Positions 679 through 61,770 are shown, counted from the stretch's first letter. The stretch is DNA of 64,000 bases from Minisyncoccota bacterium (GCA_041653755.1 JBAZEU010000001.1:1398-65397); one strand, 5' to 3'. Program-made: numbers and translations. Notes: generated from the sequence alone by a model not told the origin.

Positions 679-718
679 AGCCAATGGCAAATACTGCATT
701 GGCTCTTTTTCTTTTGGA
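679..718 (+). terminator. Rho-independent terminator.
   Basis: A 9-bp stem gagccaatg/cattggctc is followed by tttttctttt. Confidence 0.5.
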
Positions 719-756
719 AAGCTACCTGATTTGAAGTTTCAAAAGTATCTGAAAAA

Positions 757-765
757 TGCTATAAT
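757..765 (+). promoter_or_regulatory. Candidate extended -10 promoter (TGcTATAAT) for the methyltransferase operon.
   Basis: The sequence tgctataat lies about 100 nt upstream of the ATG at 863. No clean -35 was found. Confidence 0.3.
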
Positions 766-862
766 CCAAAGTACGAGTACCTCAAGATAATTTTTTAGGA
801 AATTCGGTGCGAAACACAAAAAATAGGGTATTTCGATTGGAAATTTGGTAAAATAGAAAACT

Positions 863-2056
863 ATGTATGATAATGTCGTAGCCCAAGAAATTTCTCGGAA
901 ATATAGGCAAACGCCGTTGGTAAATTTTGCCGGTGTCAGCCAATATACAAAGCTCCAAGATTTGAACTTAAACTGGAGAGAAAGAGATTTACCGGAACGA
1001 GCAAGAACAAAACATGTTCACAGATTACACCCGTACATGGGGAAGTTTATTCCACAGCTCGTGGAAATCTTTTTGCGAAAATATCAACCCCGCTTGGTTT
1101 ACGACCCGTTTTGCGGTTCTGGTACAACATTGGTAGAAGCGAACGCCCTCGGCATCGATTCAATTGGCACCGATATTTCCGCTTTTAACATATTGCTTTC
1201 AAAAGTAAAAACCGACGAATACAATTTTCCTTTACTGGAAAAGGAATTATACGAAATCTTAAGAAGGTTCTGCGAATACAAAAACAAATTTTCAAAAAAT
1301 AAAGGAGTTGATAAATTATTTCAAACAAAAAACGAATACATAAAAACTTGGTTTGCGCCTAACACCCAAAAAGAATTACTTTGTTATTTGAAACTCATCA
1401 AAGATTATACCTATCAAGATTTGTTAAGAATAATCTTGTCACGGTCCGCTCGGTCCGCCCGTTTGGTTACTCACTTTGACTTAGATTTTCCCAAAAAACC
1501 GCAAATCACCCCGTATCAATGCTATAAACACGGGCGAATATGCAAGCCGACCGAAGAGGCATACAAATTCCTAAATCGTTATACAATAGATACTCTTCGA
1601 CGAATAAAGGAATTTTCGCGAATAAGAACAAAGGCGAAAGTCGTTCTTAGTAACGATGATTCTCGATCCCTCAATCTTCCCAAAGGAATCGACATGGTTT
1701 TCACCTCTCCGCCTTATCTTGGTTTAATTGATTACCATGAACAGCATAAATATGCTTACGAACTTCTTGGATTGAAAAACAACGAGACGCGTGAAATTGG
1801 AGCGGCGAAAAACGGCCATTCAGATAAAGCAAAACAAGATTATATTAAAGGTATAAACGATGTCTTATTGCATACGCGTGATTATATGGCTAAAGACGGA
1901 TTGGCAATCATTGTCGTAAACGATAAATTTGGTTTGTACAAGCCTGAAGCTACAGGGTTTAAGGCAATCGGCCGAGTCGAAAGACATGTCAATCGTCGAA
2001 CCGGCAGAAGAAAGGGCGCATTTTACGAGAGCATCCTAATTTGGAAAAAAATATGA
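863..2056 (+). CDS. DNA amino-methyltransferase (N6-adenine or N4-cytosine), alpha-class motif order.
   Basis: AdoMet motif I is DPFCGSGTT near aa 80. Catalytic motif IV is FTSPPY near aa 280. The roughly 200-aa spacing suggests a target-recognition domain between them. Confidence 0.8.
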   Translation: MYDNVVAQEISRKYRQTPLVNFAGVSQYTKLQDLNLNWRERDLPERARTKHVHRLHPYMGKFIPQLVEIFLRKYQPRLVYDPFCGSGTTLVEANALGIDSIGTDISAFNILLSKVKTDEYNFPLLEKELYEILRRFCEYKNKFSKNKGVDKLFQTKNEYIKTWFAPNTQKELLCYLKLIKDYTYQDLLRIILSRSARSARLVTHFDLDFPKKPQITPYQCYKHGRICKPTEEAYKFLNRYTIDTLRRIKEFSRIRTKAKVVLSNDDSRSLNLPKGIDMVFTSPPYLGLIDYHEQHKYAYELLGLKNNETREIGAAKNGHSDKAKQDYIKGINDVLLHTRDYMAKDGLAIIVVNDKFGLYKPEATGFKAIGRVERHVNRRTGRRKGAFYESILIWKKI

Positions 2057-2889
2057 CAAAAGAACAAGAAATGAAGGAAGCCATCCAATCTGTCGTTAAG
2101 CTGATGATGAATAGGGTTATGCAAAAAGTTTTAGTGGAGGATCCGTTCATAAAAGAAGAACATAAAGCTAAAAAACCGCTGTATGCCGCTTTAGTTCCAG
2201 ATGAAATATTTAAAGGGGCGCATTTCGAAAGACGCTTTGTCACTCCTTTCGGTGGTGTCTGGGAGAAACTCGCTATTGTGGCTGCAAACAAAGGTCTTGG
2301 ATATGGAGTAAAGGAGCATAGTATTACAGGAACGGTAAATTCTGAACGGTTAAGAAGAATACAAGAAATTTTAAATAATTTGGAACATTCAGAAAAGGGA
2401 AAGAAAAAGATTAGACCGAATTGGGATAGCGAACTCAAATATATCATGGAAGGTAAAAGCGAGAAAGTTATGCCAACTACCGTTATTTGCGATGTGTACG
2501 CCGAAGATAGAAAAAATGACAAAAAATATGCCTTTGAGTTAAAAGCTCCGCTACCAAATAGTGATCAAACGAAAGTAAGTAAAGAAAAAATTCTCAAGCT
2601 ATACAGCATGGAACCAAGACAAATTGATGAGGCTTATTATGCCTTACCATACAACCCTTTCGGAAAAAGAGAAAACTATTCCTGGAGTTTTCCTGCAAGA
2701 TGGTTTGATATGAAAAATGACAAAGCGGTGTTAATTGGAAATGAATTCTGGGAAAAAATCGGAGGGCTTGGGACATATAAAGCTTTTATTGATGCAATAA
2801 ATGAAATAGGCAAGGAATATAAGGACCGAATTTACAGAGAATTTTTGGGTATTGAACCACCGTCTGATATAGATGCGGATAAGTTGTAA
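2041..2889 (+). CDS. Putative type II restriction endonuclease with a PD-(D/E)xK core, cognate to the upstream methyltransferase.
   Basis: It overlaps the methyltransferase stop by 16 nt, implying translational coupling. Motif VICDVYAED...YAFELKAP fits D...ExK. The rest is unique sequence typical of REases. Confidence 0.5.
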   Translation: MEKNMTKEQEMKEAIQSVVKLMMNRVMQKVLVEDPFIKEEHKAKKPLYAALVPDEIFKGAHFERRFVTPFGGVWEKLAIVAANKGLGYGVKEHSITGTVNSERLRRIQEILNNLEHSEKGKKKIRPNWDSELKYIMEGKSEKVMPTTVICDVYAEDRKNDKKYAFELKAPLPNSDQTKVSKEKILKLYSMEPRQIDEAYYALPYNPFGKRENYSWSFPARWFDMKNDKAVLIGNEFWEKIGGLGTYKAFIDAINEIGKEYKDRIYREFLGIEPPSDIDADKL

Positions 2890-2899
2890 TTTAATATGT

Positions 2900-3682
2900 A
2901 TGGAACCTTTTAAACTACCGGCTCTTGAATCTCTTGCGAAAATCGTCGGTGATCGTTATTCAGGAACAGGAATATCGGAATTTTTTCGTAAAGCAGGTTT
3001 TCCTGACGTTGTTCATGACGGTGGTACAAAATGGCGATTTGTGTACGCTTCCCTTGAAAATCTACAGAATCGGGCTTATGGCCCTATTAACGTGGTAAAA
3101 GTAATTCAACAGTTGTGCGATCCTCAGGAGTATTTTTCAACACCAGATCAACATACGGAAATCTGTGACCAAGTCAATCAGATTCTCGGGTTTTATGGAT
3201 TGCTGGTTGGCGAAGATGGTCGAGTGAGAAAACTTGATGAAAAAGTTACATCGCTTTCAAAGCCTATACCGGAGAATGCAAAAATATTTGATAGCCGTCA
3301 GTTTCACTCCACAATTATTTGCCACGCCCGCAAATTATTCGTCGAAGGTAATTATTTTCACGCCATTTTTGAGTGTTGTAAAGTATATGATAAAGAAGTG
3401 CAAAACAAGTCCCAGATGTCTGGCTATGGATCAAGGCTAATGGAGGAAGCTCTTTCTCTTTCGGGGTCACTTAAACTAAATACTCAACGAACCAGAACAG
3501 AAGTTAATGAGCAAGAAGGTGTTATGCATCTTTCGGTTGGTTTGATGAGGGCTATTAGAAATCCTCAAGCTCATGAACCTGCTCTTGATTGGCCAATCAA
3601 TCGAGAAGAGGCGTTGGATTTACTTTCTTTTTTGAATTTCCTATTTCGAAAATTTGATAAGGTAACATACTTTAAACAATAA
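2900..3682 (+). CDS. HEPN-domain protein (TIGR02391/Ymh-like or Abi-like), a predicted RNase. The start may be the upstream ATG at 2873.
   Basis: A C-terminal Rx4H motif (AIRNPQAHEP) sits at aa 229-234 of the 269-aa ORF. The gene overlaps the REase stop. Confidence 0.55.
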   Translation: MEPFKLPALESLAKIVGDRYSGTGISEFFRKAGFPDVVHDGGTKWRFVYASLENLQNRAYGPINVVKVIQQLCDPQEYFSTPDQHTEICDQVNQILGFYGLLVGEDGRVRKLDEKVTSLSKPIPENAKIFDSRQFHSTIICHARKLFVEGNYFHAIFECCKVYDKEVQNKSQMSGYGSRLMEEALSLSGSLKLNTQRTRTEVNEQEGVMHLSVGLMRAIRNPQAHEPALDWPINREEALDLLSFLNFLFRKFDKVTYFKQ

Positions 3683-3686
3683 ATTT

Positions 3687-6560
3687 ATGAGTACTCCATA
3701 TCCAAAAGGTTCGGAATGGCGAAAATGGGATTTACATGTCCACACACCTTCGTCTGCTTTAGCTCATACCTTGGGTAGCGATTGGGATGGATATGTCAAC
3801 CAACTTATTGATGCTATAAAAAAACACCAGATAGCCGCGATTGCTACCGCTGATTATTTTACAATTGAGGGATACAAAAAGCTGCTTGAATATTACAGTA
3901 AAGACACATGTACGCTCTCCGCAAATAGCAAAAGCGTTCAATGTTATTTGATCCCTGGCATAGAATTACGACTCAACATCTTCAACAGCGAAGAAGAATC
4001 TATAAACTTACATATATTCTTTGATCCAGAATGTTGTTCGAGCGAATTCATTACCCAAAATTTCCTTGAAGCATTAAACATCGTTTATAGGGGATCGGAA
4101 GTATTGCTGAAACAACAGAACCTTTTGGCAATTGGAAAGAGCATTGCCGATAATACACCGGCAGATTTTGGCCAGAGTTTTGGCGCATGCAGCGAAGCCA
4201 CAAAAGATGAATATATTAGAAAAGCACTTGGAGCAATAACCTTAAACTATACCAATATCGATGACGCACTTAAAGGTATTGATAAAATATTTGAAAAACA
4301 AAATCTCCCACCAAAAGCTTATTTAATCGCAGTCGTTGGTAAGGGACACGGTGGTATCAGATCGCTTAAATGGTTTGAAGACAATAAAAGTTTCTCTCGC
4401 GCTGGACTTATCAGAGAACATTTGACCTACCAAACAGATGCCATTTTTTCGAATGATCAGAACGATAGGAATTTCTACCTTGGCAGACGGGAAGATGCTC
4501 CCGCAACGGAGATTCAAAATAGGTTTGATAATCTCAAGCCGTGCATTTGGGGTTCTGATAGTCACTCTCTTGATAAATTACTTCATCCATCTAATGGCAA
4601 TACATTGGATTATACGTGGATCAAGGCGGAGATTTCCTTTGAGGGATTTAAGCAAATTACTTACGAACCAGAGCTGAGGGTAAGGGTTCAGCAAGATAAT
4701 CCAGTTGAAGAAGAAGCTTATGCAAAGATCGAAAAACTGGAATTAGATTTCCCGGATGATCTGAAAATCAAAGACAAAGAATCCGAAGAGGCGATATCCT
4801 TTTGTATTCAAGGCAAACAGGAGGTAAACTTTTCATCAAATTTGACATGTATTATTGGTGGGAGAGGATCGGGTAAAAGTACCTTGGTTCATATCCTTTA
4901 TAACCTTGTTCCAAAAAGAGACGCTGACCGACTTTCTAAAGTCAGTTCCCCTTTGTTCAATTTACAACTTGGGTCGAAAGATGAGCTAGGAAAAATTCGT
5001 TCCCAAACTAAATCTAACATACCATCGAGCACAGAATTTTTCTTACAAAATGAGGTTGAAAAATTCGCAAAAGATGTTAGTGAAATGTCTATCCTAATCA
5101 AGACTCGCCTTTACGGTTTATCTGCCATTGATGATGGACAAAAAAATCTTCAAGAAATTGAAAGTGAGTGGCAAGATACTGCCATAGGAATGGAGGAATT
5201 GATTTCCGCCTATGATGAAATCACAAGGATTGATCAACAAATAGTTTTGGTCGTTAAGCAAAAAGATACATTAAAAAAACAGACCGATGTTATCAGCTCA
5301 AAAGATTATAAAAAACTCCAGAAAGAAATTGAAGAAATAGCTAATGCCATCAGTGCTTTTGATACCTACGAAAAAGAATACAGACGATTGTCGCTTGAGA
5401 TATTGACGCTTATAAAAAGCATCGCCAGGCTCGATTGGACTAAATATGAAGGCCAGTCTATTTTGGTTTCCCTATCCGCCGAACTTGATAAAAAGAAAGC
5501 CGAGATTCAAACATTTTTTGAAGAAACAAACAAAAAATATGTTACCGCAGATTACGCAACTAAATTAGGCGATAAAAAAACGCAACTAAAAAACTTCTTG
5601 AAAGAAAAGGGCCTTTCTCCGGAAAATATTGGAGAAATAGCCACCGCTACGCAGCAAATTGCTGAGTTGGATGAACAAATAAAGATTCTGAGGCAGGAAA
5701 GAATACCACACCAAGAAATCTATGACAGTAAAGAAGGGACACTTCAAACATATAGAGAGGCGTACGCTTCTTACAAAGGAGTGTTCGAATCAGTAGCGAA
5801 TAAGCTTCAATCAAATTTAAGTAATCTTAAATTTGACGGCGAAGAGACAAACATTTCTTTTCAATTTAAGACTAATGATCAATTACTAAAAGACGGAGTT
5901 GCTGATTTTATTAAAAGCCATAACACTTCAAGAATTAATTTAAGAGCCGATAACATTCAAAATGTTTTATTTGGGAATAATGATGTACCCTTTTCAGCTA
6001 TAGTCTCTGATCAATTAAAGATAGTGGCGGCCGTAAATAGTTCAGAGGTGGCCGATGCCCACACTCAAATTATTAGGGATCTAATAGGCGACCCAACTTT
6101 TGTTGAAAAACTTTACTTGCGGATGCAACGATACCACTTTGACATCGAAAACGTCCAAGTGCAAACAAAACTTGGCGAGAAATTTTTACAAAACACGTCG
6201 TTTGGCGAGAGATGTGGAATCGTAATTGCTATTGTTCTTGTTGCCGGAACAAATCCTATAGTAATTGACCAACCAGAGGATAATCTGGACGGGAAATATA
6301 TTTCGAAAGTTCTTGTTCCTTTAATCCGTACTCAAAAACATAAACGCCAAATTGTACTTGTTACAAGAGATGCAAATATTGTAATTGGTGGCGATTCAGA
6401 ACTGATATTAATTCTTGATAAAGAAAACCATGGTTCAGTATTACTGCCTGCAACTATCGAGAATAAAGTTATTCGATCCAAATATATTTGGATTCTAGAC
6501 GGTGGCGAAAGAGCATTCAAAGCTCGTGAAGCAAAATACTGTATTCACAAAGCAGCATAA
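3687..6560 (+). CDS. PHP phosphoesterase fused to an SMC/Rad50/SbcC-like ABC ATPase with a long coiled coil. From memory, possibly the TrlF-family architecture.
   Basis: PHP motifs are WDLHVHTPSS, GIELR, NLHIFF and WGSDSH in the N-terminal ~330 aa. Walker A is IIGGRGSGKST at aa 391-399. A coiled-coil-like charged region spans about aa 430-800. Signature-like SFGERCG lies at aa 838-844, Walker B/D-loop VIDQPEDNLD at about aa 860, and H-loop-like VLVTRD near aa 890. Confidence 0.75.
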   Translation: MSTPYPKGSEWRKWDLHVHTPSSALAHTLGSDWDGYVNQLIDAIKKHQIAAIATADYFTIEGYKKLLEYYSKDTCTLSANSKSVQCYLIPGIELRLNIFNSEEESINLHIFFDPECCSSEFITQNFLEALNIVYRGSEVLLKQQNLLAIGKSIADNTPADFGQSFGACSEATKDEYIRKALGAITLNYTNIDDALKGIDKIFEKQNLPPKAYLIAVVGKGHGGIRSLKWFEDNKSFSRAGLIREHLTYQTDAIFSNDQNDRNFYLGRREDAPATEIQNRFDNLKPCIWGSDSHSLDKLLHPSNGNTLDYTWIKAEISFEGFKQITYEPELRVRVQQDNPVEEEAYAKIEKLELDFPDDLKIKDKESEEAISFCIQGKQEVNFSSNLTCIIGGRGSGKSTLVHILYNLVPKRDADRLSKVSSPLFNLQLGSKDELGKIRSQTKSNIPSSTEFFLQNEVEKFAKDVSEMSILIKTRLYGLSAIDDGQKNLQEIESEWQDTAIGMEELISAYDEITRIDQQIVLVVKQKDTLKKQTDVISSKDYKKLQKEIEEIANAISAFDTYEKEYRRLSLEILTLIKSIARLDWTKYEGQSILVSLSAELDKKKAEIQTFFEETNKKYVTADYATKLGDKKTQLKNFLKEKGLSPENIGEIATATQQIAELDEQIKILRQERIPHQEIYDSKEGTLQTYREAYASYKGVFESVANKLQSNLSNLKFDGEETNISFQFKTNDQLLKDGVADFIKSHNTSRINLRADNIQNVLFGNNDVPFSAIVSDQLKIVAAVNSSEVADAHTQIIRDLIGDPTFVEKLYLRMQRYHFDIENVQVQTKLGEKFLQNTSFGERCGIVIAIVLVAGTNPIVIDQPEDNLDGKYISKVLVPLIRTQKHKRQIVLVTRDANIVIGGDSELILILDKENHGSVLLPATIENKVIRSKYIWILDGGERAFKAREAKYCIHKAA

Positions 6561-6708
6561 ATTTTTTCTGCTAAACAACCATCCGCAAGAAAATTTTTGA
6601 ATTAATCACCACTAAAAACCAAACAGTATTTCTCCCAATGCCCCTTAATCCCAATAGTTATTAACACCCCCCTTGTTTTTCCTGCCAGATATCTTAGAAT
6701 TAGATTAA

Positions 6709-8241
6709 ATGAATTTTTCTAAATCACGCAAAGGTTTCACCCTCATAGAACTTCTAATCGTGATAGGTATCGTAGCAGTTCTAGCCGTCGTCGTCTTAAC
6801 AGTTCTCAATCCAGTGGAATTCCTCAAAAAAAGCAGGGACTCTAGGCGTATGGTAGACCTCCAGACCTTGGATAAAGCCCTAAGGTTAGCTGATTTTGAC
6901 AATATCTCCATGGGAACAGCCAATGTGGTATATGTTTCCATCCCTGATGACACAGCAGCCACCTCAACCTGTCCTACCCTATCCTTACCAGCTTTACCAG
7001 GAGGCTGGACTTATCAATGCTCTAATACTACTAACTACCGAAAAGCTGACGGTACTGGCTGGGTACCTGTTAACTTCACCTCTCTTACCACAGTTCCCAA
7101 TCCTTTAACCTTACTACCAGTTGATCCCACCAACAGTACTTCCACCAATCTCTACTATTCATATGTCTCTGGTAGTTGGGAACTTACTGCCTTATTTGAA
7201 ACCACTGGTTACCAAACCAAATACGCAGCCAGCGACAATGGCACTTCCACTGTCCTATTTGAAGTGGGCAACCATCTTAAGATTACCCCTAATGCGGTAG
7301 CTTCAAGGACTAATACCGGAGGAGGGGGAGGCGGAAGTTCCTACACCTTAACCTTTAATACCAGTCCTACTTATTCAGGTTCGGTTACCTTTGACGGTTC
7401 TTCCTACGCCAATGGCGATACTGCTTCCAAATCTTCAGGTTCTTACAATATTTCTGGCACCCCTGGTTCAGGCCGATCCTTTTCCTACTGGTCTCCTACA
7501 GGGATGACTGTCACTGACACCAGTACCTTAAGCACTTCTGCCACTGTCTCAGGCGCTGGCAGTTTATCCATGATTCAGGTTCCTGACTCATACACCAAAT
7601 TACTCCTACATATGGATGGGACGAATGGGTCAACTAGTTTCCCTGATAGTTCTACCGCGGCCCATACGGTTACAGCTAATGGAACCGCCCAAGTAACTAC
7701 TGCCCAACAAAAATTTGGGACAGGATCGGTTCAATGTAATGGAAGTGGTAATTATCTTACTTCTGCTGATAGTGATGATTGGTATTTTGGTACCAATGAT
7801 TTTACAGTTGATTTTTGGGCAAGAAATACAGGCGGAACTAATGTGTATTTAGTTAATCAATGGCACATTAACAGCGGTGGTGTAAGTATGAGTTGGGCTA
7901 TTCTTTGGAATAGTAGCAACGGAGTGCTTATTTTACTTAGAGATCATCCTGGAGCTTGGAATGATTTTAATCAATACAATACTAGTGGGATAACTATGTC
8001 TAGTAATACTTGGTACCATATAGCATTAGTAAGATACAACAACTATGTAGATATTTATGTTAACGGTACGTCTTACTTACACCAGGCTTATTCTCTTTCT
8101 CTCCAAAACAGTGACATGAATTTGGGTATTTGTGATTATATGGGAGCCCAAGGATTTACTGGGCAAATAGATGAAGTTCGTATTTCTAAAGGTATAGCTC
8201 GTTGGACTTCAAACTTTACTCCGCCAACAGCGCCGTATTAA
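6709..8241 (+). CDS. Type IV pilin-like protein (class III signal peptide) with a large S/T/G-rich body and a C-terminal LamG-like lectin domain.
   Basis: The N-terminus SRKG|FTLIELLIVIGIVAVLA carries a prepilin cleavage/methylation motif with E at +5. The C-terminal approx 200 aa (LLLHMDG...FTVDFWAR...RISKGIARWTSNFTPPTAPY) is a concanavalin/LamG_3-like jellyroll and is paralogous to the C-terminus of the 55820 ORF. Confidence 0.7.
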   Translation: MNFSKSRKGFTLIELLIVIGIVAVLAVVVLTVLNPVEFLKKSRDSRRMVDLQTLDKALRLADFDNISMGTANVVYVSIPDDTAATSTCPTLSLPALPGGWTYQCSNTTNYRKADGTGWVPVNFTSLTTVPNPLTLLPVDPTNSTSTNLYYSYVSGSWELTALFETTGYQTKYAASDNGTSTVLFEVGNHLKITPNAVASRTNTGGGGGGSSYTLTFNTSPTYSGSVTFDGSSYANGDTASKSSGSYNISGTPGSGRSFSYWSPTGMTVTDTSTLSTSATVSGAGSLSMIQVPDSYTKLLLHMDGTNGSTSFPDSSTAAHTVTANGTAQVTTAQQKFGTGSVQCNGSGNYLTSADSDDWYFGTNDFTVDFWARNTGGTNVYLVNQWHINSGGVSMSWAILWNSSNGVLILLRDHPGAWNDFNQYNTSGITMSSNTWYHIALVRYNNYVDIYVNGTSYLHQAYSLSLQNSDMNLGICDYMGAQGFTGQIDEVRISKGIARWTSNFTPPTAPY

Positions 8242-12797: not shown

Positions 12798-12837
12798 TTC
12801 AAGATTTTTTATATTTTTAATATGTTTCATAGTAGTA

Positions 12838-12900
12838 ATTTATCTTTCCGCGCATTTTCTCCCATCTTGATTTCCTTTTCATAAACAACGAAAATGAATA
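12838..12900. repeat. Partial copy C of the dispersed repeat core.
   Basis: tatctttccgcgcattttctcccatcttgatttccttttcataaacaacgaaaatg is about 80% identical to the copy A/B cores. Confidence 0.55.
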
Positions 12901-13069
12901 TATAAATATTAAAAAGGTTCCGATTCTTCCACAGATGTACCAGATAGAATATCTTTTAACTTCTGCCATCTCTTTAGTTCTTGTATTAGTCGGTTCCAGT
13001 TGAATCTTAAGAAGTGCACAAGTAGGTTAAAATAGCGTGTGGAAGCATATTTACCAGTCTTGACTACAA

Positions 13070-16194: not shown

Positions 16195-17115
16195 TTATTT
16201 TAATTCTTTTCTTCGTCTCCCATGAAATGCTTGGTGGACTTCTCTTAACTCTTGGTTGGTTAAATGAGTGTAAATTTGAGTTGTAGAAACATTCTGATGG
16301 CCTAAGATTTCTTGGACTGAGCGCAAGTCCGCGCCGCCGATTAAAAGATCAGTAGCAAAAGCATGGCGAATAGTATGCGGGTGAATATTGGTAGTAATGC
16401 CGGCTTTTATCGCATAGTGCTCCACTAATCTTTCAATAGTTCTAGGAATAATACGGCCGATGATTTTCGGTTCTTTCGCTTTGGTTAAGCTTATAAACAT
16501 TGTCTCTTCGGTGTCATTTCTTTTATCTAAATAATTTTTTATCGCTTTTCTTGCTCTGTCCGAAAGGAAAACTAATCTTATTTTACCTCCTTTTCCGCGC
16601 ACCGAAACCTCTCCTCTTTCTAGATCGAGATAACGATCCAAAGCGCATAATTCGGAAACTCGTAAGCCGGTTGAAAATAAAACCTCTAAAATTGCTTTAT
16701 CGCGCAAAGATTTTAAGTCGTTTCCTGACGGAGCAGAGAGCAATCGTTCCAAATCCTTATATTCCAATATTTTAATTTGTCGTTCTGGGATTTTGGGGAG
16801 CTCGATATTATCTGAAGCCAGAACATCGTAATTATTTTTTGCTAAGTATTTTAGAAAATTCCTGATAGCGATTATGTAATATGATTGGGTATTTTTTTGA
16901 AGAGGTTCATTTTGTTGGGCGCCTTGTTGTTTACTTAAAAATAGTCGAAAATCGCGGACTTTGTCTTGAGTAATATCTTTTTCGGTTTTTATTTTTGAGA
17001 AGCTAAAAAATGCTTTAAGATAGCGCTCATAGTTTTTTTGCGTCTTCGGCGAGCGGTTTTTCTCAATTTCCAGATAGGCCAGGTAATCTTTTAAAAGTTG
17101 GTTTATGTCAGCCAT
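16195..17115 (-). CDS. xerC: Tyrosine recombinase XerC/XerD family.
   Basis: An N-terminal SAM-like core-binding domain. The catalytic region contains R...HTIRHAFAT...LGHQNVSTTQIYTHL with the terminal Tyr. Confidence 0.85.
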   Translation of the reverse strand: MADINQLLKDYLAYLEIEKNRSPKTQKNYERYLKAFFSFSKIKTEKDITQDKVRDFRLFLSKQQGAQQNEPLQKNTQSYYIIAIRNFLKYLAKNNYDVLASDNIELPKIPERQIKILEYKDLERLLSAPSGNDLKSLRDKAILEVLFSTGLRVSELCALDRYLDLERGEVSVRGKGGKIRLVFLSDRARKAIKNYLDKRNDTEETMFISLTKAKEPKIIGRIIPRTIERLVEHYAIKAGITTNIHPHTIRHAFATDLLIGGADLRSVQEILGHQNVSTTQIYTHLTNQELREVHQAFHGRRRKELK

Positions 17116-17200
17116 TAGGGTAAGTATAGAGCATTCAGGGAAGTGTCGCAAAATCTCTCGAATTTGCTTTTTAGAAATATTTGGGCTATAATAGATTCAA

Positions 17201-47841: not shown

Positions 47842-48508
47842 GACGCTTTTAATTTTTCTGCTTTTGATTTTGGCGAATTTCCATCAATCAAGTTTTTGGG
47901 CCATTTCCGCTTTTATTTTTTTTGCGGTACTTTTTTATTTTTGGCCTTTGCTCAATTCATCGGATTGGCTGGGATATTTTTTGATTTTTTTGACGGGTTC
48001 TTTAATAACAATACTCTCTTTAGATTTTTCAGTGATAGCCCTGATCGCCATTTTAGGATTAACTATCATCTTTTTTCTATTAATCGGTTCAAAGAATTTA
48101 AATTTAAGCGGTCCTCAATCAATTTTTTTGTTGAGAAGTTTTTTGTTCCTTTTGATTTTTTTCATGTTTTTTTCGGTAAACAAGGCAGAATTGTTTTGGC
48201 TGAAATATCTGGCTTTGATCGCGGCAATCTTCATCATATTCTTTGGATTGCTTAAAAATTACCCCAAGAAAAAACTCTATACCGTCGCCTTAACGTTTTT
48301 ATTGGTGCAAATAGTTTGGGCGATAGGATTATTGCCTATTGGCTTTATCAATCAGACGGCTCTGACTTTGGTTTTCATCCTGATTGTCGAGGAGTTGATC
48401 GTTTGCCATTTTAGCGGCGCATTTAATTATCAAAATATCGTGAAGAATGTTATGATTGTCGTTGTTTTAATGGTTTTAATTTTGGCTTTGTCAAAATGGA
48501 CAATCTAA
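47786..48508 (+). CDS. Polytopic membrane protein, hypothetical. Start uncertain because the ORF overlaps the clpB 3' end.
   Basis: About 7 hydrophobic helices. Overlaps the next gene's start by 13 nt. Confidence 0.35.
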   Translation: MLKRLKLASKIPPYPLIAKTLLIFLLLILANFHQSSFWAISAFIFFAVLFYFWPLLNSSDWLGYFLIFLTGSLITILSLDFSVIALIAILGLTIIFFLLIGSKNLNLSGPQSIFLLRSFLFLLIFFMFFSVNKAELFWLKYLALIAAIFIIFFGLLKNYPKKKLYTVALTFLLVQIVWAIGLLPIGFINQTALTLVFILIVEELIVCHFSGAFNYQNIVKNVMIVVVLMVLILALSKWTI

Positions 48509-50601
48509 AAATATCTAAAATTTTTCTAAAAATTTCTCAAGGATTTTTATACTTAACGCTTTTGACGCCAGTTTTGATATCACGTAATTTATTCTTCCCT
48601 TTCGTTTCTGGAAAGATAATTTTTTTCAAGATAATAGTTGAGCTTGCATTGTTGTTTTATCTGTTGGCGTTCCTGTCTAACCCCAAAAACGAAACGTTTG
48701 AATTTAAAAAGTTATTCAAGAACCCCATCTTTATCAGCGTTTGCGTTTTTACCTTATTGTTTTTCGCTTCAAGTTTTTGGGGGATAAACGCTAAATTTAG
48801 CTTATTCTCGAATTACGAAAGAGGAGAGGGCGGTTTTCAGATGCTTCATTATCTTATTTTCTTTTTCTTGTTGGTGTCTTTATTTAAAACGAAAAAGGAT
48901 TGGAAGAATCTTTTTATCGCCTCGATTCTTGTCTCGCTGGTAGTCTGTTCCTATGCATTAGGCCAGCTTGGAGTAGCAAAATGTCTTGATAGGGCCGGCA
49001 GCAATCAAACGGCTATTCAGGCCTGTCAGACCGGAACTTTTTTGTCGGCGAGCAGCCAAGTTTCCGGGACACTTGGTAATTCTTCTTATCTGGCAGTTTA
49101 TATTTTATTCACTTTATTCTTTATCGGTTATCTAATTCTTGGAGAGAAGAGAAAATGGTTAAAAATAATTTTAGGGATTGTGGCGATTTTTGAATTTTTG
49201 ATTTTACTTCAAACTCAAACCCGCGGAGTATTATTCGGCTTGGTTATAGCTACTATCATATGGTGCTTAGCTGCTGCTATTTTCTACCTTTTCAAAAACC
49301 GTAGTAAGAAAAGTTTGCTATTCGTTTTAGCTGTCCTCGGGCTATTAGCGGTTTTTATGCTTATTCTTTCTTTGATTGCCGTAAGCCATCCATCTTCTGT
49401 TGCTAGCCGGTTCATAAAAGTTTTTAGCCCATCTTATTTACTTAATTCATTAAAAGACCGTTTCTGGGCCTGGGGATCAGCTACGGCTTCTATTATGGAA
49501 AGGCCTTTTGGCTGGGGAGCTGAAAATTTCCCGCAGGCATTCGATAAATACTATAATCCTAAGCTTTTTGGCATTGAAAGTTGGTTTGACCGGGCGCACA
49601 ATGTTTACCTGGATTATGCCTTAGTCGGCGGGATTCCTCTCTTGATTGCTTTTTTGTCGATCTTTTACTTTTTCTACCAACGAATATTTAAGAGGTTTAA
49701 AGTCATATCGGAAGGAGTAGTCTTACAGTACGGCAATGAGAATTTAATTATTTTGTCTTCGGTATTTATTTTGATAACAACTTATTTAATTCAGGGGTTT
49801 GTTCTATTCGACGTAATTTCAACTTACATAGTTTTATTTTTATCCTTGGCGTTTTTTGTAAATTATTTTGATAAGCCGGAAGAAGAAAGAAAAAATTCAA
49901 CCGTTGTTCCTTGGTGGGGGAAGGGAGTTGTCTCTATTTTAATAATCTCGATATTCTTTGGTATTTATTGGCTAGGATTTTTGCCTTATCAGCGTTCCAG
50001 GATTTTGATTAACGCTATCCAAAAATCTCAAGCTGAATTCGTGGATGCGATTCGAACCCAAAAAAGCGATTTCAGCGAAACTTTTACTAAAATCAATTCT
50101 TATTTCGATCCGGCGCTAAATCATAAAGCGTTGGTCGGCGGCAATGAAACTATGATTGCTTTTTGTCAGTCGAATGAAAGCTTCTTAAATTATATTTTGC
50201 AGCAAAATACTTCGCCGACAAAAAATTCTTTTATTTCTTTGGTAAGCTATTTAGATCAAGAATCTGATAAAAAAGAAAAAGCAAACGAATTAATCGGAAC
50301 AAGGCCATTATTATATATAGGTTGGGTTGATTTTGCCGTTGGACGTGCTAGCGGTGAAACTTCATATTATCAAAAAGCAGCCGGATATTTCGATAAAGGA
50401 TTGAAAGAATCGCCGACCAGGATGGAATTCATTTATGTTAATCTTGAAGTTGCTTTGACTCAAAAAGATCAAAATACCGCCAAGTTAATGCTCAAAAAGG
50501 CTTTTGGTTTGAGGCCAGACCTTCAGGAAACGAACAAGTATTACAAAGGAGCTTACGAAGCAGAGTTTGGGACAAAGTTTGATGCCAATATCGTCGACTA
50601 A
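48496..50601 (+). CDS. O-antigen ligase / PglL-type oligosaccharyltransferase family (Wzy_C) membrane protein with a C-terminal TPR-like domain.
   Basis: Multi-TM N-terminus with LQTQTRGVLFG and periplasmic-loop RAHNVYLDYALVGG motifs. Helical repeats at the C-terminus. Confidence 0.55.
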   Translation: MDNLKISKIFLKISQGFLYLTLLTPVLISRNLFFPFVSGKIIFFKIIVELALLFYLLAFLSNPKNETFEFKKLFKNPIFISVCVFTLLFFASSFWGINAKFSLFSNYERGEGGFQMLHYLIFFFLLVSLFKTKKDWKNLFIASILVSLVVCSYALGQLGVAKCLDRAGSNQTAIQACQTGTFLSASSQVSGTLGNSSYLAVYILFTLFFIGYLILGEKRKWLKIILGIVAIFEFLILLQTQTRGVLFGLVIATIIWCLAAAIFYLFKNRSKKSLLFVLAVLGLLAVFMLILSLIAVSHPSSVASRFIKVFSPSYLLNSLKDRFWAWGSATASIMERPFGWGAENFPQAFDKYYNPKLFGIESWFDRAHNVYLDYALVGGIPLLIAFLSIFYFFYQRIFKRFKVISEGVVLQYGNENLIILSSVFILITTYLIQGFVLFDVISTYIVLFLSLAFFVNYFDKPEEERKNSTVVPWWGKGVVSILIISIFFGIYWLGFLPYQRSRILINAIQKSQAEFVDAIRTQKSDFSETFTKINSYFDPALNHKALVGGNETMIAFCQSNESFLNYILQQNTSPTKNSFISLVSYLDQESDKKEKANELIGTRPLLYIGWVDFAVGRASGETSYYQKAAGYFDKGLKESPTRMEFIYVNLEVALTQKDQNTAKLMLKKAFGLRPDLQETNKYYKGAYEAEFGTKFDANIVD

Positions 50602-50749
50602 AAAGTGAAACAAACCTAAAAACCCATCGTTTTATATGTATATAGGCAGAAAGACAGTCCCCGTCATCTCTTGCAAATCAGCGCAAAATCTTTTAAAATA
50701 AAAAATAATGGTTCAGAGTGAGGCTGAACTAAAAAATAATCGATTTCCA

Positions 50750-50925
50750 ATAATTTTTTGGTTATTGGTTTTACCTGCCTGCCGGTAGGCAGGAGTTGTA
50801 AGTTAGTTTATGCCTCGCTCAAAAAGCGAGTTTTTTATTTGTTTTGTCTCCGCCAACGGCGGAGGAACAAAACAAGAATCCGCCTAAGTTTTTCGAAAAT
50901 TTTGGCGGATCTTAACCCAAATGAA
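50750..50925 (+). promoter_or_regulatory. Cluster of four hairpins including a near-perfect 36-nt palindrome.
   Basis: cctgcct/aggcagg; ctcgc/gcgag followed by a T-run; ctccgcc/ggcggag; aatccgcctaagtttttcgaaaattttggcggatc. Confidence 0.35.
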
Positions 50926-51061
50926 ATCATGGTCCGAAAGGATCCTTGTTAATTATTAATGGTCGATCAAGGATAAAGAATTAGATCGATAAAATTAAAA
51001 TAAGGATTTTGTTAAATCCCGATTTATCAGGACTTAAAGAAATCCGATCACAATAATAAAA

Positions 51062-52975
51062 ATGAAATTAGGAATAAAAGTTTTTGCTGTAGTTTCAGCA
51101 TTAACAATGATCGCTCCTATTGCATTTGGTGCAACAACTGCTGAATTGCAAGCTCAAATCACAGCCCTTTTGGCTCAGATTCAAGCTTTACAAACTCAGT
51201 TATCTGCACAGGGTGGGCAAGTATCTTCAGCTACCACTTTTACCAGTAGCCTCACTATTGGTTCACAGGGAACTCAAGTTACTGCTTTGCAAAATCTTTT
51301 GATTTCCGCAAATAAAGGAACAAAAGCTCAAGCATTAGCCGCCGTTGGTGCAACAGGATACTTTGGTTCAATAACCAAAGCCGCTTTAGCCGAATATCAA
51401 GCCGCTGCGAATATTTCACCAGCAGTTGGATATTTTGGCCCAATCACAATGGCCTATGTTAATTCATTGGCCTCAACAGGCACAGGAACTGGAACCGGAA
51501 CAGGAACCGGAACAGGAACAACAGCAGCAGAAGGTTCATATACGGTAGCTTTGGCTGCCTCACCAGCGAATCAGGTTAATGCTGCATCAGGAGTTAACGT
51601 TCCAGTTTACGGAATTGAAGTCAGAGCCACTGGTTCTGATATCAAAATCGACAGATTGGATCTTCAGTTAGCAGTTACAAACACTGCAACAGCAGCTATT
51701 CAAAATCCAGCTTCGTTTATAACGAAGATTTCTATTTTGGATGGCTCAACAGTGTTGTCATCCCAGGTAATTAGCTCTGCTAATATCTATCAGGATGCCG
51801 CTCTTGCTTATTGGACTCGATTAACAGGTCTTAACTTCGTGGTTTCAAAGGATACTGCAAAAACTTTGACAGTAGCTATTGATACTGCGGGCGCAGTTGA
51901 TCAGGGTAGAACAATTGTTGTTAACGTTTATGGTGCCAATGGTATCAGAGGCGTTGACGGAATAGGATTAAATACCTATGCCGCTTTAGCAACAACCAGA
52001 ACACACACCTTTGTAACAGGAGGTGCCTCTGTTTTGACAGTTACCGCTGACCCAAATACCGTGTTAACAAACAACCATGTTGTTGATGGTACTACTGGAG
52101 CCACAGAGGTTACAGTAATGTCTTTCAACGCCAAAGCAACTGTTGACAATGCAGTGATCAGAACCATTAACTTGGTTCAGTCATATTCATCAGCAACAGC
52201 TCCATCAGCAGTTAAAATCTATGATGGTAGCACTTTGGTAGGTTCAGGAGTTGCTTCCGGTCTTGCCGCTGCAAACGCAACCGGTTCAACAGCCTTTACT
52301 AACTTGGCAATTTCCGTTCCGAAAGACACAACCAAAACACTTACAGTAAAGATCGACTATCCAGCTACATACGGCGCAACAGGCGGTGAAAACGCCACAG
52401 TCGGTGTCTGGAGAGCTGATGTTACTGCAAATGGAATTTGGTATCAGAGAGCAGATGGCGTAATAGCCGCTGCAACAATGTCTGGTGCTACAGTTTGGGG
52501 AAATACCCAATACACATTCCGCAGAGCTCCAAGCATCACCTTGGTTAGCGCTTCTGCCTCAAAGGTTGGCGGTGGCACAACAGCTTCAAGCAACCTTATA
52601 ACAACAATGGTTTTGAAGTTGAAAGCCCAAGGAGGAACTTTAGTTGCTCCAGATGGGATAGTAGCTTCAGCCGGAGCCAGCACAACCGTTGCAATTCTTA
52701 AAGCTTCAACAGGAGGCGAATTAGAAGCTGCATCTGGTACAAGTGCTTTTGCTGTTACGTTGAGCCCGAATAAGGCAACTTATGCTGACGGAGAAGAGGT
52801 CACAATGACAATTTCAGGAAATACTGCATATGAAGGTCCTACGACCAATGTCAGAACACCTGAATTCCTTCGCATGAGATTGGCTGATTTTTGGTGGAGA
52901 GTTGGAGACACTGATGCTCAAGTACAAAATTGGGGCATTACAGACTTCGTAACACCATACGTTAGCTTGCCGTAA
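51062..52975 (+). CDS. Secreted surface protein: signal peptide, Q/A-rich coiled coil, PG-binding-like domain, (TG)n linker and a T/A/S/V-rich beta domain.
   Basis: Its N-terminal 130 aa are paralogous to the 55820 ORF. The GSQGTQVTALQNLL...GYFGPIT module resembles a peptidoglycan-binding domain. Confidence 0.55.
   Translation: MKLGIKVFAVVSALTMIAPIAFGATTAELQAQITALLAQIQALQTQLSAQGGQVSSATTFTSSLTIGSQGTQVTALQNLLISANKGTKAQALAAVGATGYFGSITKAALAEYQAAANISPAVGYFGPITMAYVNSLASTGTGTGTGTGTGTGTTAAEGSYTVALAASPANQVNAASGVNVPVYGIEVRATGSDIKIDRLDLQLAVTNTATAAIQNPASFITKISILDGSTVLSSQVISSANIYQDAALAYWTRLTGLNFVVSKDTAKTLTVAIDTAGAVDQGRTIVVNVYGANGIRGVDGIGLNTYAALATTRTHTFVTGGASVLTVTADPNTVLTNNHVVDGTTGATEVTVMSFNAKATVDNAVIRTINLVQSYSSATAPSAVKIYDGSTLVGSGVASGLAAANATGSTAFTNLAISVPKDTTKTLTVKIDYPATYGATGGENATVGVWRADVTANGIWYQRADGVIAAATMSGATVWGNTQYTFRRAPSITLVSASASKVGGGTTASSNLITTMVLKLKAQGGTLVAPDGIVASAGASTTVAILKASTGGELEAASGTSAFAVTLSPNKATYADGEEVTMTISGNTAYEGPTTNVRTPEFLRMRLADFWWRVGDTDAQVQNWGITDFVTPYVSLP
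51478..51522 (+). repeat. In-frame hexanucleotide microsatellite (acagga/accgga)n encoding (TG)8.
   Basis: acaggcacaggaactggaaccggaacaggaaccggaacaggaaca. Confidence 0.6.
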
Positions 52976-53000
52976 TATCAGTTACGATTGTTATGAAAAA

Positions 53001-53028
53001 CCAAAAAAGCCCTTTCGGGCTTTTTTGG
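53001..53028. terminator. Terminator.
   Basis: ccaaaaaagccctttcgggcttttttgg. Confidence 0.6.
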
Positions 53029-53076
53029 TTTCAGAAGTTTTGACTTTAAAACTTTCAGCGTTTAAAATTATTAGGT

Positions 53077-55317: not shown

Positions 55318-55324
55318 AAAGTTC

Positions 55325-55558
55325 TTATTGTTTTAAAAATCCTTCAATCTCTTCGCGGTTAAAACCAACAATGATATGGTCGTTTATGTCGATTACCGGC
55401 ACGTTTATTTTCCCGGTTTTTTGGATCATTTCTTCTCGGGCTTTCTCGTCAACCGTAACGTCAAATTCTTCATAATCCAATCCTTGTTCAGTAAAAAAAT
55501 CTTTTGCCATTTGGCAATAAGGACAAGCTGGAGTTGAATAAATTTTGATTTTTACCAT
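55325..55558 (-). CDS. Glutaredoxin.
   Basis: CPYC active site. 77 aa with a thioredoxin fold pattern. Confidence 0.8.
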   Translation of the reverse strand: MVKIKIYSTPACPYCQMAKDFFTEQGLDYEEFDVTVDEKAREEMIQKTGKINVPVIDINDHIIVGFNREEIEGFLKQ

Positions 55559-55559
55559 T

Positions 55560-55730
55560 TTATTTGTTTCCTGTTTTGGTTATTTTTCGAGAGAAGGAAA
55601 AAACAATTAAAATTATGCCTATTATTACCGCATTCCACGTGGCAATATTATATTGAAAAAATCCTAAGAGCCAGGGTGAAACAACAAGCCAGATGCCTAC
55701 TATTAAAATTGGCGTAAAAAATTTTGTCAT
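55560..55730 (-). CDS. Small 56-aa membrane protein with an SPW motif, absent from the ORF track.
   Basis: MTKFFTPILIVGIWLVVSPWLLGFF.... Its stop lies 2 nt before the glutaredoxin start. Confidence 0.3.
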   Translation of the reverse strand: MTKFFTPILIVGIWLVVSPWLLGFFQYNIATWNAVIIGIILIVFSFSRKITKTGNK

Positions 55731-55819
55731 ATGAGTATATTGTATCGAATTTTATTTGATATATCAAAATCCTTAGAGACCTCTTGCTTTCTTTTTTTGC
55801 GTATTGGATAATTAATTAA

Positions 55820-57874
55820 ATGTCTAAACTAGCAAAAGGTATTGCTGTTATTGGAGTGCTCAGTATGTTAGCTCCAACTGTTTTTGGTGTTTCGGTTAGT
55901 GACTTACAAGGTCAACTTGATGCTCTTTTAGTCCAACTTCACTCCTTACAGGCTCAATTAAGCGCGCTAAATACTTCTAATGTCTTCAATTTTAGCGTCA
56001 ACCTAACTTTTGGTTCAGTCGGGAGTCAGGTTTCTGCTCTTCAGAACTTTTTGGTGTCACAGAATGTTGGCCTGGCAGCTCTGGCTCTGGCTCGTCATGG
56101 AACAACCCAGAATTTTGGCAGTTTAACTAAAGCAGCCCTCATTGAATACCAGCAGTCAGCTGGCATTTCTCCAGCTATTGGATATTTTGGTCCCATTACC
56201 AGAAATTACATTAACTCTTTGAGGAATAACACCGACAACACGAATAACACGACTACCAATACTTCTGGTTTATCTTTTTCAACTTCAACAACTTCAAACG
56301 AATTAATTGGTTTAGTTCCAGTTGTTTCTACTAATTCAGCTATCAACGTATATGACACTTCAGCTATTTTAAGGGGAGAAACAGATTCTTCTGCTGGTCT
56401 GGTTGGTTTTGATTACGGTCTGACCTCCAGCTACGGTTCAGAGACCACTTCTACCGGCAATGGAATGTTTTCTTCGTATCTTTCTGGCTTATCAGGCAAT
56501 ACCACCTATCATTTCAGAGCCAAAGCTAAGAATTCAGCTGGCTGGGGGTATGGAGGTGATCAAACCTTAACTACTGCCACGGTCTTAAATTATTCAGTCC
56601 CGCAAGGAGACAATAGTGTGGTTATTTCTATCCCTACTTTAACCACAGATGCAGCTACAGCTTTAGCAGCGACCACTGCTACCTTAAATGGAACTATTAC
56701 TGATGAAGGAGGAGCTTCTTCTACGATAACTGGTTTTGATTACGGTCTGACAAATGCGTACGGCACTGAAGCCACTTCCACCTATGCCGGAGGAGCAGCT
56801 GCGTTCTCAAAAGATATTACGAGTTTAGCCAGCAATACCACCTACCATTTCAGATCTAAGGCTAAAAATTCTGCTGGTTGGGGTTATGGAGCGGATGCAA
56901 TATTAACTACCGCCTTAGCTCCTCCAACTGTGACCACTAACGCTGCCACCAGCGTAGCTACTTCTACCGCTACCTTCAATGGTTCTATCACTTCTGAAGG
57001 AGATGCTTCTTCCACTATTACTGGTTTTGATTACGGGTTAACAGACAGTTACGGTTCAGAAGCTACTTCTACTTACGCAGCTGGAGTAGGAGCATTTAAC
57101 AAAGCTATCACTGGTTTAACTTCTGGCGCTACTTATCATCTTAGAGCCAAATCCTACAATGCAGGAGGTTGGGGTTATGGGAGTGATGGAACGTTAACGA
57201 CAGCAGATCAATACGCCAAACTTCTACTGCATATGGACGGGGTTAATGAGTCTACTAGTTTCCCTGATTCTTCGTTTTATAATCATACGATGACGGCTCA
57301 AGGTGGCGTCCAAGTAGATACCAGCAATTACAAATTCCCGACTGGCGGATGCAATTTTGTATCCGATGGAAATTATCTTTCTTCGGCTACTAGCGAAGAT
57401 TGGCATTTTAGTACAGGTGATTTTACAATTGACTTCTGGGTGAAATTTAATTCGTTGGGTACGGAGAAAGCATTAGTTGTCATATTTGATGCGAATCTTC
57501 CTGCTCCAGTTACCTTGAATGTTGTCAGGACATCAGATAATAAATTAGCGGCTGCTATGAGTACTCCGAATCACGGGCCAGTAACCACTAATGCTGTATT
57601 TACTCAAACTGGAGTTTGGTATCATGTGGCTATTGAAAAAAGTGGAGGATCCACAAACCCTTTATTCTTTATCAATGGAGTGCAGCAAACAATTACTAGC
57701 AGCGCTTGGGGAGATGCTTTGTGGCCTGCAGATCTTCCGTGGAAAACTACCTTATATGTTGGTTATTCTCCTTGGCATGGCAGCGGGATAGACGGATATA
57801 TCGATGAGCTTAGAATCAGTAAAGGCATCGCTCGTTGGACTTCCAATTTTACCCCGCCAACAACTCCGTACTAA
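55820..57874 (+). CDS. Secreted surface protein: signal peptide, coiled coil, PG-binding-like domain, three ~100-aa repeats (YHFRAKAKNSAGWGYG), and a C-terminal LamG-like domain paralogous to the pilin-like protein.
   Basis: The repeats GFDYGLT..YG(S/T)E.TST......YHFR.KAKNSAGWGYG occur three times. The C-terminus is LLLHMDG...FTIDFW...RISKGIARWTSNFTPPTTPY. Confidence 0.65.
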   Translation: MSKLAKGIAVIGVLSMLAPTVFGVSVSDLQGQLDALLVQLHSLQAQLSALNTSNVFNFSVNLTFGSVGSQVSALQNFLVSQNVGLAALALARHGTTQNFGSLTKAALIEYQQSAGISPAIGYFGPITRNYINSLRNNTDNTNNTTTNTSGLSFSTSTTSNELIGLVPVVSTNSAINVYDTSAILRGETDSSAGLVGFDYGLTSSYGSETTSTGNGMFSSYLSGLSGNTTYHFRAKAKNSAGWGYGGDQTLTTATVLNYSVPQGDNSVVISIPTLTTDAATALAATTATLNGTITDEGGASSTITGFDYGLTNAYGTEATSTYAGGAAAFSKDITSLASNTTYHFRSKAKNSAGWGYGADAILTTALAPPTVTTNAATSVATSTATFNGSITSEGDASSTITGFDYGLTDSYGSEATSTYAAGVGAFNKAITGLTSGATYHLRAKSYNAGGWGYGSDGTLTTADQYAKLLLHMDGVNESTSFPDSSFYNHTMTAQGGVQVDTSNYKFPTGGCNFVSDGNYLSSATSEDWHFSTGDFTIDFWVKFNSLGTEKALVVIFDANLPAPVTLNVVRTSDNKLAAAMSTPNHGPVTTNAVFTQTGVWYHVAIEKSGGSTNPLFFINGVQQTITSSAWGDALWPADLPWKTTLYVGYSPWHGSGIDGYIDELRISKGIARWTSNFTPPTTPY

Positions 57875-57890
57875 AGATTTGAATTGTCAA

Positions 57891-57923
57891 AACTAAAAAC
57901 CCCCGATTTTGTCGGGGGCTTTT
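57891..57923. terminator. Bidirectional terminator.
   Basis: aaaaacccccgattttgtcgggggctttt. Confidence 0.6.
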
Positions 57924-57927
57924 AGTT

Positions 57928-58125
57928 TTATCTTCGGAAAGATCCTCGATCTTGTCTAAAAGATCTTACTCTTTCTCGATGACAATCGCGGCACAAGAGT
58001 TTGTCCAATTTAGTTGGATCTGGCTCGAATGGAAGCTCTGTAATATCGCCTCCACACTTTGCACATTTCCAGCTGCCCTGGTACATTTTTCTCTCAAAAC
58101 CGCCTTGGTTATTATCGAAAGCCAT
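57928..58125 (-). CDS. Small zinc-ribbon protein (CxxC...CxxC).
   Basis: CAKCGG...CRDCH. Confidence 0.4.
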   Translation of the reverse strand: MAFDNNQGGFERKMYQGSWKCAKCGGDITELPFEPDPTKLDKLLCRDCHRERVRSFRQDRGSFRR

Positions 58126-58228
58126 TTTGTCGTATTTTAATTAATGATTCGTCCCTTTTAAATTAGCTTGAGACAAAATGGCATAATAGACATTTTTCCA
58201 CTTTGCTTTGCTACTTTCTATTAGTATA

Positions 58229-61761: not shown

Positions 61762-61770
61762 AATTAAACT

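Follow-up and report, generated by a model that had tools for sequence, protein, structure and literature searches.

A type IV pilin-like protein with a LamG jellyroll head in a Patescibacteria genome is typical of a very large family of modular pilins

A gene on the plus strand of the 64,000-nt stretch of Minisyncoccota DNA analysed here (the window) encodes, at positions 6709..8241, a type IV pilin-like protein of 510 aa with a jellyroll LamG head, an assignment for which HMM scores, comparison with the family and a structure model that is confident for the head all speak. The protein is probably a minor pilin through which a type IV filament displays this LamG head for ligand binding. It is a real yet typical member of a large and already described class, the modular pilins, in which a functional module is grafted onto a pilin module (Raynaud et al. 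2021, PMC8179133). The reading frame lies exactly where the initial annotation had placed it, and its product is 100% identical to P0001, which comes from a Candidatus Paceibacterota MAG and is called 'LamG-like jellyroll fold domain-containing protein' at NCBI. Calling it a 'giant' pilin was overstated, given that the median length of the family sharing its pilin module (the carrier family) is 409 aa.

The N-terminus carries a class III signal, MNFSKSRKG followed by FTLIELLIVIGIVAVLAVVVLTVL. The leader (aa 1-9, 6709..6735, plus strand) is short and hydrophilic, its last residue being the Gly just before the predicted site of prepilin-peptidase cleavage; the prepilin motif thus reads KG and then FTLIELLIVIGIVAVLA, with FTLIE placing Glu at +5 after the site and about 20 hydrophobic residues in the segment. 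Two profiles score above their cut-offs, Pfam PF07963 (N_methyl, aa 5-30; 31.2 bits against 21.2) and the NCBIfam prepilin cleavage/methylation domain TIGR02532 (29 bits against 16.3), in agreement with the textbook prepilin signal with Glu at +5 that had been read from the sequence. When all six frames were scanned, this was the single prepilin motif of such kind in the whole window. Phe at +1, Glu at +5 and the hydrophobic core-forming segment that follows constitute alpha-1 of the mature pilin (aa 10-63, 6736..6897, plus strand), which was delimited by AlphaFold and a profile match. It is modelled as helices at 12-33 and 35-63, with a pLDDT of 77-88 for aa 11-50 and of 54-68 beyond. Among solved pilins and pseudopilins, the profile of the pilin module matches geopilin (7tgg), GspG (5wda) and Thermus PilA (6xxd), via alpha-1 only.

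Residues 1-203 form a conserved pilin module, 50-97% identical across the aligned relatives. Its invariant positions are F10, T11, L12, E14, R43, D44, R47, Y102, C104, G117, W118, D139, P140 and N142, and C88, kept in at least 90% of the sequences, makes up with C104 a conserved pair of cysteines. The globular part of the module, defined from alignments of relatives (aa 64-203, 6898..7317, plus strand), contains the motifs GW (117-118), DPxN (139-142) and YY(S/T)Y (149-152), and AlphaFold with the curated alignment predicts strands in it at low confidence (pLDDT 34-76). The module is followed by a Gly6 linker (aa 204-209, 7318..7335, plus strand), where homology to sister pilins with other heads ends, and by a small S/T/G-rich beta domain of about 83 aa (aa 210-292, 7336..7584, plus strand). 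This middle domain is 91% identical in the relative P0003 and was modelled at low confidence. Pfam detects Flg_new_2 in four members of the carrier family, and in P0019 the stretch with the Flg_new_2 hit lines up in register with the middle domain, a weak match at 27% identity (E 0.012); judging from this alignment, aa 210-292 are probably of the InlB-B-repeat (Flg_new_2) kind. What had been described as about 280 aa of S/T/G-rich low-complexity sequence before the LamG domain is, therefore, actually a conserved pilin module of about 200 aa, a linker and a small beta domain, the S/T/G enrichment being confined to about aa 201-300 of the 510-aa protein.

The C-terminal head (aa 293-510, 7585..8238, plus strand) is a LamG/ConA-like jellyroll, identified by PF13385, AlphaFold and Foldseek. 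It starts with ..DSYTKLLLHMDG and ends with RISKGIARWTSNFTPPTAPY, and its limits were set by 84 independent local alignments. Pfam Laminin_G_3 (PF13385) matches aa 344-494 with an E value of 1.1e-13 and 52 bits against a cut-off of 27.6, in line with the roughly 200-aa LamG/ConA-like jellyroll proposed in the initial annotation. The structure was modelled with AlphaFold from a curated 49-row alignment with the LamG domain in every row, a single-sequence run on the whole protein having given a pLDDT of only 34. In this model, aa 291-510 fold as a jellyroll and not as something else, with block-mean pLDDT values of 73-98 that exceed 90 over most of the domain. Searching the PDB with the head, Foldseek returned 586 matches at E <= 0.001 with jellyroll domains on top. 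The subfamily to which this LamG belongs, running from LLLHMDG to TSNFTPPTAPY, is used by the small sub-clade that includes the window pilin; the family-typical LamG differs from it, running from GLVGYWKFDEGSG to RIYNRALSAAEIxAxYNATK.

LamG domains bind many types of ligands. Lectin activity and host adhesion would be attributed to this head by analogy. The name 'lectin' might be no more than a fold label here, with the jellyroll binding protein or lipid or acting as a structural spacer, a reading that we regard as rather unlikely. In its favour, Foldseek ranks highest (E 2e-10) the lectin-like HCN subdomain of clostridial neurotoxins and NTNH, for which we know of no established sugar site. 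A phmmer search against all PDB sequences found no solved relative of the head, only two chance antibody matches at E > 0.03, and PF13385 is a generic superfamily model. Against it, Foldseek also matches well a carbohydrate-binding module, domain 4 of the GH43 arabinanase AbnA (5hon), with a TM score of 0.69 on the target; the Streptococcus sanguinis protein PilC and PilX1 of strain TM7x set a precedent for jellyroll pilin heads that bind glycan (PMC9934059, PMC11623550); and the other LamG protein of the window, discussed below, is encoded within a surface-glycan gene cluster.

The architecture of the pilin is not rare. A profile of the globular module alone retrieved 2,621 representatives of 50%-identity clusters at E <= 1e-3, of which 1,102 remained at E <= 1e-30, and the prepilin motif is present in 126 of the 140 top representatives. 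Laminin_G_3 was detected in 87 of the 119 best-scoring representatives from a separate, independent search that used only the carrier module, as well as in 56 of 85 full-length members in an earlier sample. The remaining heads include FGE-sulfatase, Lcl_C, Fib_succ_major, DUF2341, Kelch or NHL propellers, Gly-rich sequence, CBM_4_9, BNR and fibrinogen_C. On these sequence comparisons, the head is exchangeable within the carrier family, LamG being found in about 70% of the members, and the combination of pilin and LamG is the default in this very large family of Patescibacteria pilins, most of which have it. Even sister pilins whose carriers are 91-97% identical have quite different, unrelated downstream parts: among the sister carriers of the window pilin, P0002 combines FN3-like repeats with LamG, P0006 combines them with Lcl_C, and in P0005 and P0015 they precede an unannotated domain of about 130 aa. 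There are also headless versions of about 200-240 aa (L134, P0125, P0130, P0133 and P0134). A second sample, from a homologue search with the globular module alone, comprised 16 short proteins.

These headless forms could be classical major pilins, and one could suppose that the protein or its family builds the body of a thick filament, with LamG heads along the whole shaft. The abundance and strong conservation of the carrier module and the presence of Glu at +5 would fit such an arrangement. We nevertheless consider it very unlikely, since an appendage of about 300 aa on each subunit is sterically demanding and the major pilins known so far from Patescibacteria are small (PMC11623550). The occurrence of several paralogues with different heads in one genome, of which P0002, P0011 and P0026 may be an example if they share one contig, fits interchangeable minor subunits better.

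The pilin gene has no pilus genes in its neighbourhood and is in this sense an orphan. It lies directly after a defence island that comprises a type II methyltransferase and restriction enzyme, a PD-Lambda-3_B/Ymh-like protein and a 957-aa SMC-like ATPase (whose PHP-like N-terminus was judged from the sequence only), and it is followed by a dCMP-deaminase-like gene. Of the 55 ORFs in the window with a length of 120 aa or more, 50 were scanned, and none matched T2SSE, T2SSF, Peptidase_A24, PilM or PilT; genes for prepilin peptidase, PilB, PilC and type II secretion were thus not found in these 64 kb. Rfam reported three tRNAs in the window and nothing else. The same isolation is found across the carrier family, most members being orphan genes: of the 37 loci that span 8 kb or more, only 2 have a T2SSE ATPase near the gene. 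In both of these, a gene for a pilin with LamG adjoins a PilB-type ATPase (T2SSE 392-406 bits, with MshEN) and RuvB. Homologues of pilB, pilT, pilM and pilC have been reported in most Patescibacteria phyla (PMC11623550).

The orphan setting of the gene and of most of its relatives could also mean that no long filament is involved. The class III signal would then serve a processed membrane anchor or a short pseudopilus, and the head, kept at the cell surface, would capture polysaccharide or other nutrients. A model for such filament-independent display is the bindosome of Sulfolobus, in which sugar-binding proteins carry class III signals. Several of the alternative heads look enzyme-like or substrate-binding (FGE-sulfatase, CBM_4_9, BNR/sialidase-type), and the pilin module has GspG-like features, even though TIGR01710 reaches only 25 bits. 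Three observations point the other way and lead us to regard this explanation as unlikely: two family members sit beside PilB-type ATPases, alpha-1 is conserved together with Glu at +5, as expected for packing between subunits, and the published lectin-headed modular pilins are filament components (PMC9934059).

Under the preferred reading, that of a minor pilin, the prepilin would enter the membrane via its hydrophobic N-terminus, a prepilin peptidase would remove MNFSKSRKG and methylate Phe at +1, and a PilB/PilC-type machine encoded elsewhere in the genome would add the subunit to a type IV filament through alpha-1, with Glu at +5 allowing pairing with a neighbouring subunit. By analogy with other pili, the subunit would most likely reside at or near the tip as a low-abundance pilin, because the head appears too bulky for dense packing. 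The LamG head would bind a ligand, most plausibly, again by analogy, a glycan borne by a partner cell, a host cell or a surface. A second LamG of the same subfamily is borne by a putatively Sec-secreted, PG-binding-like protein with an FN3-like stalk, and thus related binding modules may be shown both at the cell wall and at a distance, on the pilus.

This second protein, of 684 aa, is encoded on the plus strand at 55820..57874, within a surface-glycan cluster that includes two Wzy_C proteins, a Wzx-type flippase and a DsbA-like protein. Its N-terminal module (aa 1-135, 55820..56224, plus strand) consists of a signal peptide, read as Sec-type by eye from the sequence, a coiled coil and a PG_binding_1-like domain. 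The stalk (aa ~167-466, 56318..57217, plus strand) is formed by three FN3-like repeats, recognized by the fn3 profile (whole-protein score of 27.8 bits) and by their similarity to stalk repeats of pilin-family proteins, and the LamG head (aa 467-684, 57218..57871, plus strand) scores 57.1 bits with PF13385. The initial annotation had noted this ORF, its Sec signal, its three repeats of about 100 aa and the homology of its C-terminus to that of the pilin, all of which stand; in an alignment of about 309 aa, the two proteins are 37% identical (E 2e-43). The PG-binding-like domain that it also proposed is not secured by this protein taken singly, where PG_binding_1 reaches 18.9 bits and the cut-off is 23. 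It gains support from a homologous module in another surface protein of the window (51062..52975, plus strand), with the same signal/coiled-coil/PG-binding arrangement and an unrelated body, whose N-terminus is 55% identical to the N-terminal 135 aa and passes the cut-off with 26.8 bits.

That one C-terminal module had been reused on a pilus-type and a wall-anchored scaffold holds in part. The same kind of head, from the same LamG subfamily, is indeed found on the pilin and on the Sec-secreted, PG-binding-like protein, but the two LamG modules alone are only 41% identical, no closer than to proteins of unrelated metagenomes, several of which rank before the window paralogue, 11th among the matches to the pilin LamG. 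They are therefore subfamily relatives rather than a reused module or sister copies. The near identity of their ends does exist as described: the last 20 residues differ at one position, and nucleotide identity there, put at about 80%, amounts to 79% when the last 63 nt are compared and to 85% for the last 55 nt, which is what peptides differing by one residue give. The shared final peptide, RISKGIARWTxNFTPPTxPY, is a motif found throughout the LamG subfamily. A looser form of the tail, W[TS]..F.PP, is present in 60 of 120 database hits, often internally as well as terminally because many of these proteins hold two LamG copies. Where the two genes encode identical residues, they agree in the codon at 9 of 19 positions of the tail (47%) and at 32 of 68 in the rest (47%), and thus there is no sign of recent exchange. 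With codon sharing equal in both parts and the motif family-wide, we reject recent gene conversion between the two genes; the near-identical tail reflects purifying selection on a family motif.

It is in the stalk, rather than in the head, that the pilin and wall scaffolds have more in common. Its FN3-like repeats are 60-72% identical to those of pilin-family proteins from other genomes (P0006, P0011, P0034 and P0015). At the nucleotide level, the pilin gene of one relative, L162, matches the window at 6647-7332 with 78.7% identity, up to the Gly linker. Its homology to the pilin gene ends at position 7332, and beyond the linker it matches the repeats of the second LamG gene instead, at 56625-57203, with 72-73% identity. 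Given this sharing of stalk repeats and the recurrence of the N-terminal module in the protein encoded at 51062..52975, these surface proteins are modular at both ends.

The pilin carrier and the PG-binding module could, we propose tentatively, be alternative scaffolds of a combinatorial adhesin repertoire, often housed in defence or mobile islands, in which stalk and head cassettes recombine at the Gly-rich linker. Such cassettes may comprise the FN3-like repeats, InlB-like domains, the two LamG subfamilies, Lcl_C, FGE-sulfatase, propellers and the unannotated domain of about 130 aa. The unrelated heads on carriers that are 91-97% identical, the homology of L162, which stops at the linker and resumes against the stalk of the wall-type protein, and the location of carrier-family genes in island contexts suggest, rather than demonstrate, an exchange of cassettes between pilin and wall carriers. 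If it takes place, it would be a fast-evolving determinant of partner or host range in Paceibacteria.

Patescibacteria live attached to other microbes, and pilus-borne binding domains are leading candidates for the choice and hold of a partner. The functional idea put forward in the initial annotation, that of a pilin-tethered lectin acting as a host- or partner-cell adhesin, is a reasonable one. The gene itself adds one more example and no new principle, and it leaves current views of type IV pili unchanged. What is gained is a delimited family of carrier pilins with more than 2,000 clusters, mostly LamG-headed and sometimes bearing many other heads, together with the finding that stalk repeats and the LamG-subfamily head type are common to pilin and wall-bound scaffolds. 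The carrier family offers a ready catalogue of candidate host-recognition modules for binding assays.

Compared with known systems, the pilin module resembles GspG-type major pseudopilins (TIGR01710) in its alpha-1, in an RDxxR motif after alpha-1 and in DPxN in the globular part, and GspG 5wda matches positions 8-99 of the pilin-module profile. The window pilin differs from GspG in having a large C-terminal extension and no type II secretion genes in the window. Assignment as the GspG major pseudopilin was rejected, since TIGR01710 gives 25 bits against an equivalog cut-off of 88.85; all pilin and pseudopilin equivalogs of NCBIfam score far below their cut-offs with this product.

PilC of S. 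sanguinis, a pilin whose ConA-like lectin module binds glycans, has been modelled in a tip complex (Shahin et al. 2023, PMC9934059). It has in common with the window pilin the Glu5 of the pilin part, the ConA-like lectin module and a large processed size. However, its pilin moiety is very short, unstable and in need of PilA, and its gene lies in a pil operon, whereas the window pilin has a large pilin module and is an orphan by a defence island. PilC was absent among the matches when the head was searched with phmmer against all PDB sequences, and orthology with it was rejected for this lack of detectable sequence homology.

Lectin-like minor pilins have also been described in Saccharibacteria, where deletion of the propeller-bearing PilX2 causes a host-binding defect (Grossman et al. 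2024, PMC11623550). PilX1 and PilX2 of Nanosynbacter lyticus strain TM7x are, like the window protein, Patescibacteria pilins with C-terminal accessory domains and are proposed tip adhesins, their domains being a beta-jelly-roll resembling an L-type lectin and a beta-propeller, respectively, and PilX2 being needed for host binding (PMC11623550). The likeness to PilX1 is drawn from its published description. Unlike these two pilins, which are encoded in pilin loci and have no predicted PilD signal (PMC11623550), the window pilin carries a canonical signal, and its family is of the Paceibacteria/Omnitrophota type.

The closest counterparts are the modular pilins at large, more than 1,200 of which were catalogued in 264 architectures, with PF13385 heads among the 15 commonest architectures and with several representatives in candidate phyla (Raynaud et al. 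2021, PMC8179133). The window protein, with its pilin module (aa 1-203), Gly6 linker (204-209) and Laminin_G_3 head, shares with those combining IPR012902 and PF13385 the class III signal, the pilin module, the short linker and a grafted domain that is not specific to type IV pili (PMC8179133). It stands apart from them in its unusually large and well-conserved carrier of about 200 aa and in the extra small beta domain inserted between the linker and the head.

Directly upstream of the gene for the modular pilin with a LamG head (6709-8241, plus strand), positions 863-6560 of the window form a defence island encoding a type II DNA methyltransferase, a TdeIII/HinfI-type restriction enzyme, a PD-Lambda-3_B/Hypoth_Ymh (HEPN-like) protein and an SMC-like ATPase of 957 aa, whose C-terminus is Ppl-like and whose N-terminus looks PHP-like when judged by eye. 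The counterpart of window positions 686-6672 was found in another assembly (contig L161, Logan SRR18595300), where the encoded methyltransferase is identical and the order of the four genes, from methyltransferase to ATPase, is the same. This contig ends 37 bp upstream of the pilin start codon, a break of the kind that an assembly graph would show if the 5' region of the pilin gene were repeated or varied between strains.

A sister pilin, P0005, is also located in an island (L162 1-21374, ENA k141_2429400), which carries an Eco57I-type restriction-modification gene and genes for LexA, a Multi_ubiq/ThiF pair, a serine recombinase, RuvC, a TraG/VirD4-like coupling protein and an integrase. The start of P0005 was called too far downstream, which cuts off its true N-terminus, MNFSKSHKGFTLMEML. 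Within the window, a stretch of about 190 nt (12830-13019) looks like a recombinase relic because it shares 82% identity with the 3' end region of the L162 serine-recombinase gene, and 3 kb beyond it comes a gene for a tyrosine recombinase (16195-17151, minus strand). The first ~17 kb of the window may represent a degraded mobile or variable island.

The LamG paralogue, a 684-aa Sec-type surface protein (55820-57874, plus strand), is flanked on both sides by a surface-glycan gene cluster (48496-62904), including genes for two Wzy_C (O-antigen-ligase-like) proteins, one with TPR repeats, a Wzx/MurJ-type flippase, a DsbA-like thioredoxin, a HisH/HisF-like pair and a PP-loop protein. Positions 51062-52975 encode a 637-aa surface protein sharing 55% identity with the paralogue across the first 135 aa, which comprise the signal, a coiled coil and PG_binding_1 (26.8 bits in the 637-aa protein). 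Its Ala/Thr/Gly-rich body is unrelated to the paralogue and gave no Pfam matches. Both LamG genes have a raised G+C content (0.415 at window positions 6001-8000 and 0.431 at 56001-58000, versus about 0.38), and the GC skew of their coding strand is negative, features that probably reflect their Ser/Thr/Gly/Asn-rich composition rather than a foreign origin.

Across the wider family, P0005, P0015, P0019, P0020 and P0026, as well as L087, share an unannotated C-terminal domain of ~130 aa (PQxGYVDPNG ... YIYAxYxxVTYT) that has no Pfam matches and that Paceibacteria and Omnitrophota proteins use as an alternative pilin head. In two metagenomic loci, L138 (1436-7258) and L148 (6904-11274), genes for a PilB-type ATPase and RuvB adjoin a pilin gene of this family with a LamG head, and in L138 this group is itself adjoined by dnaA.
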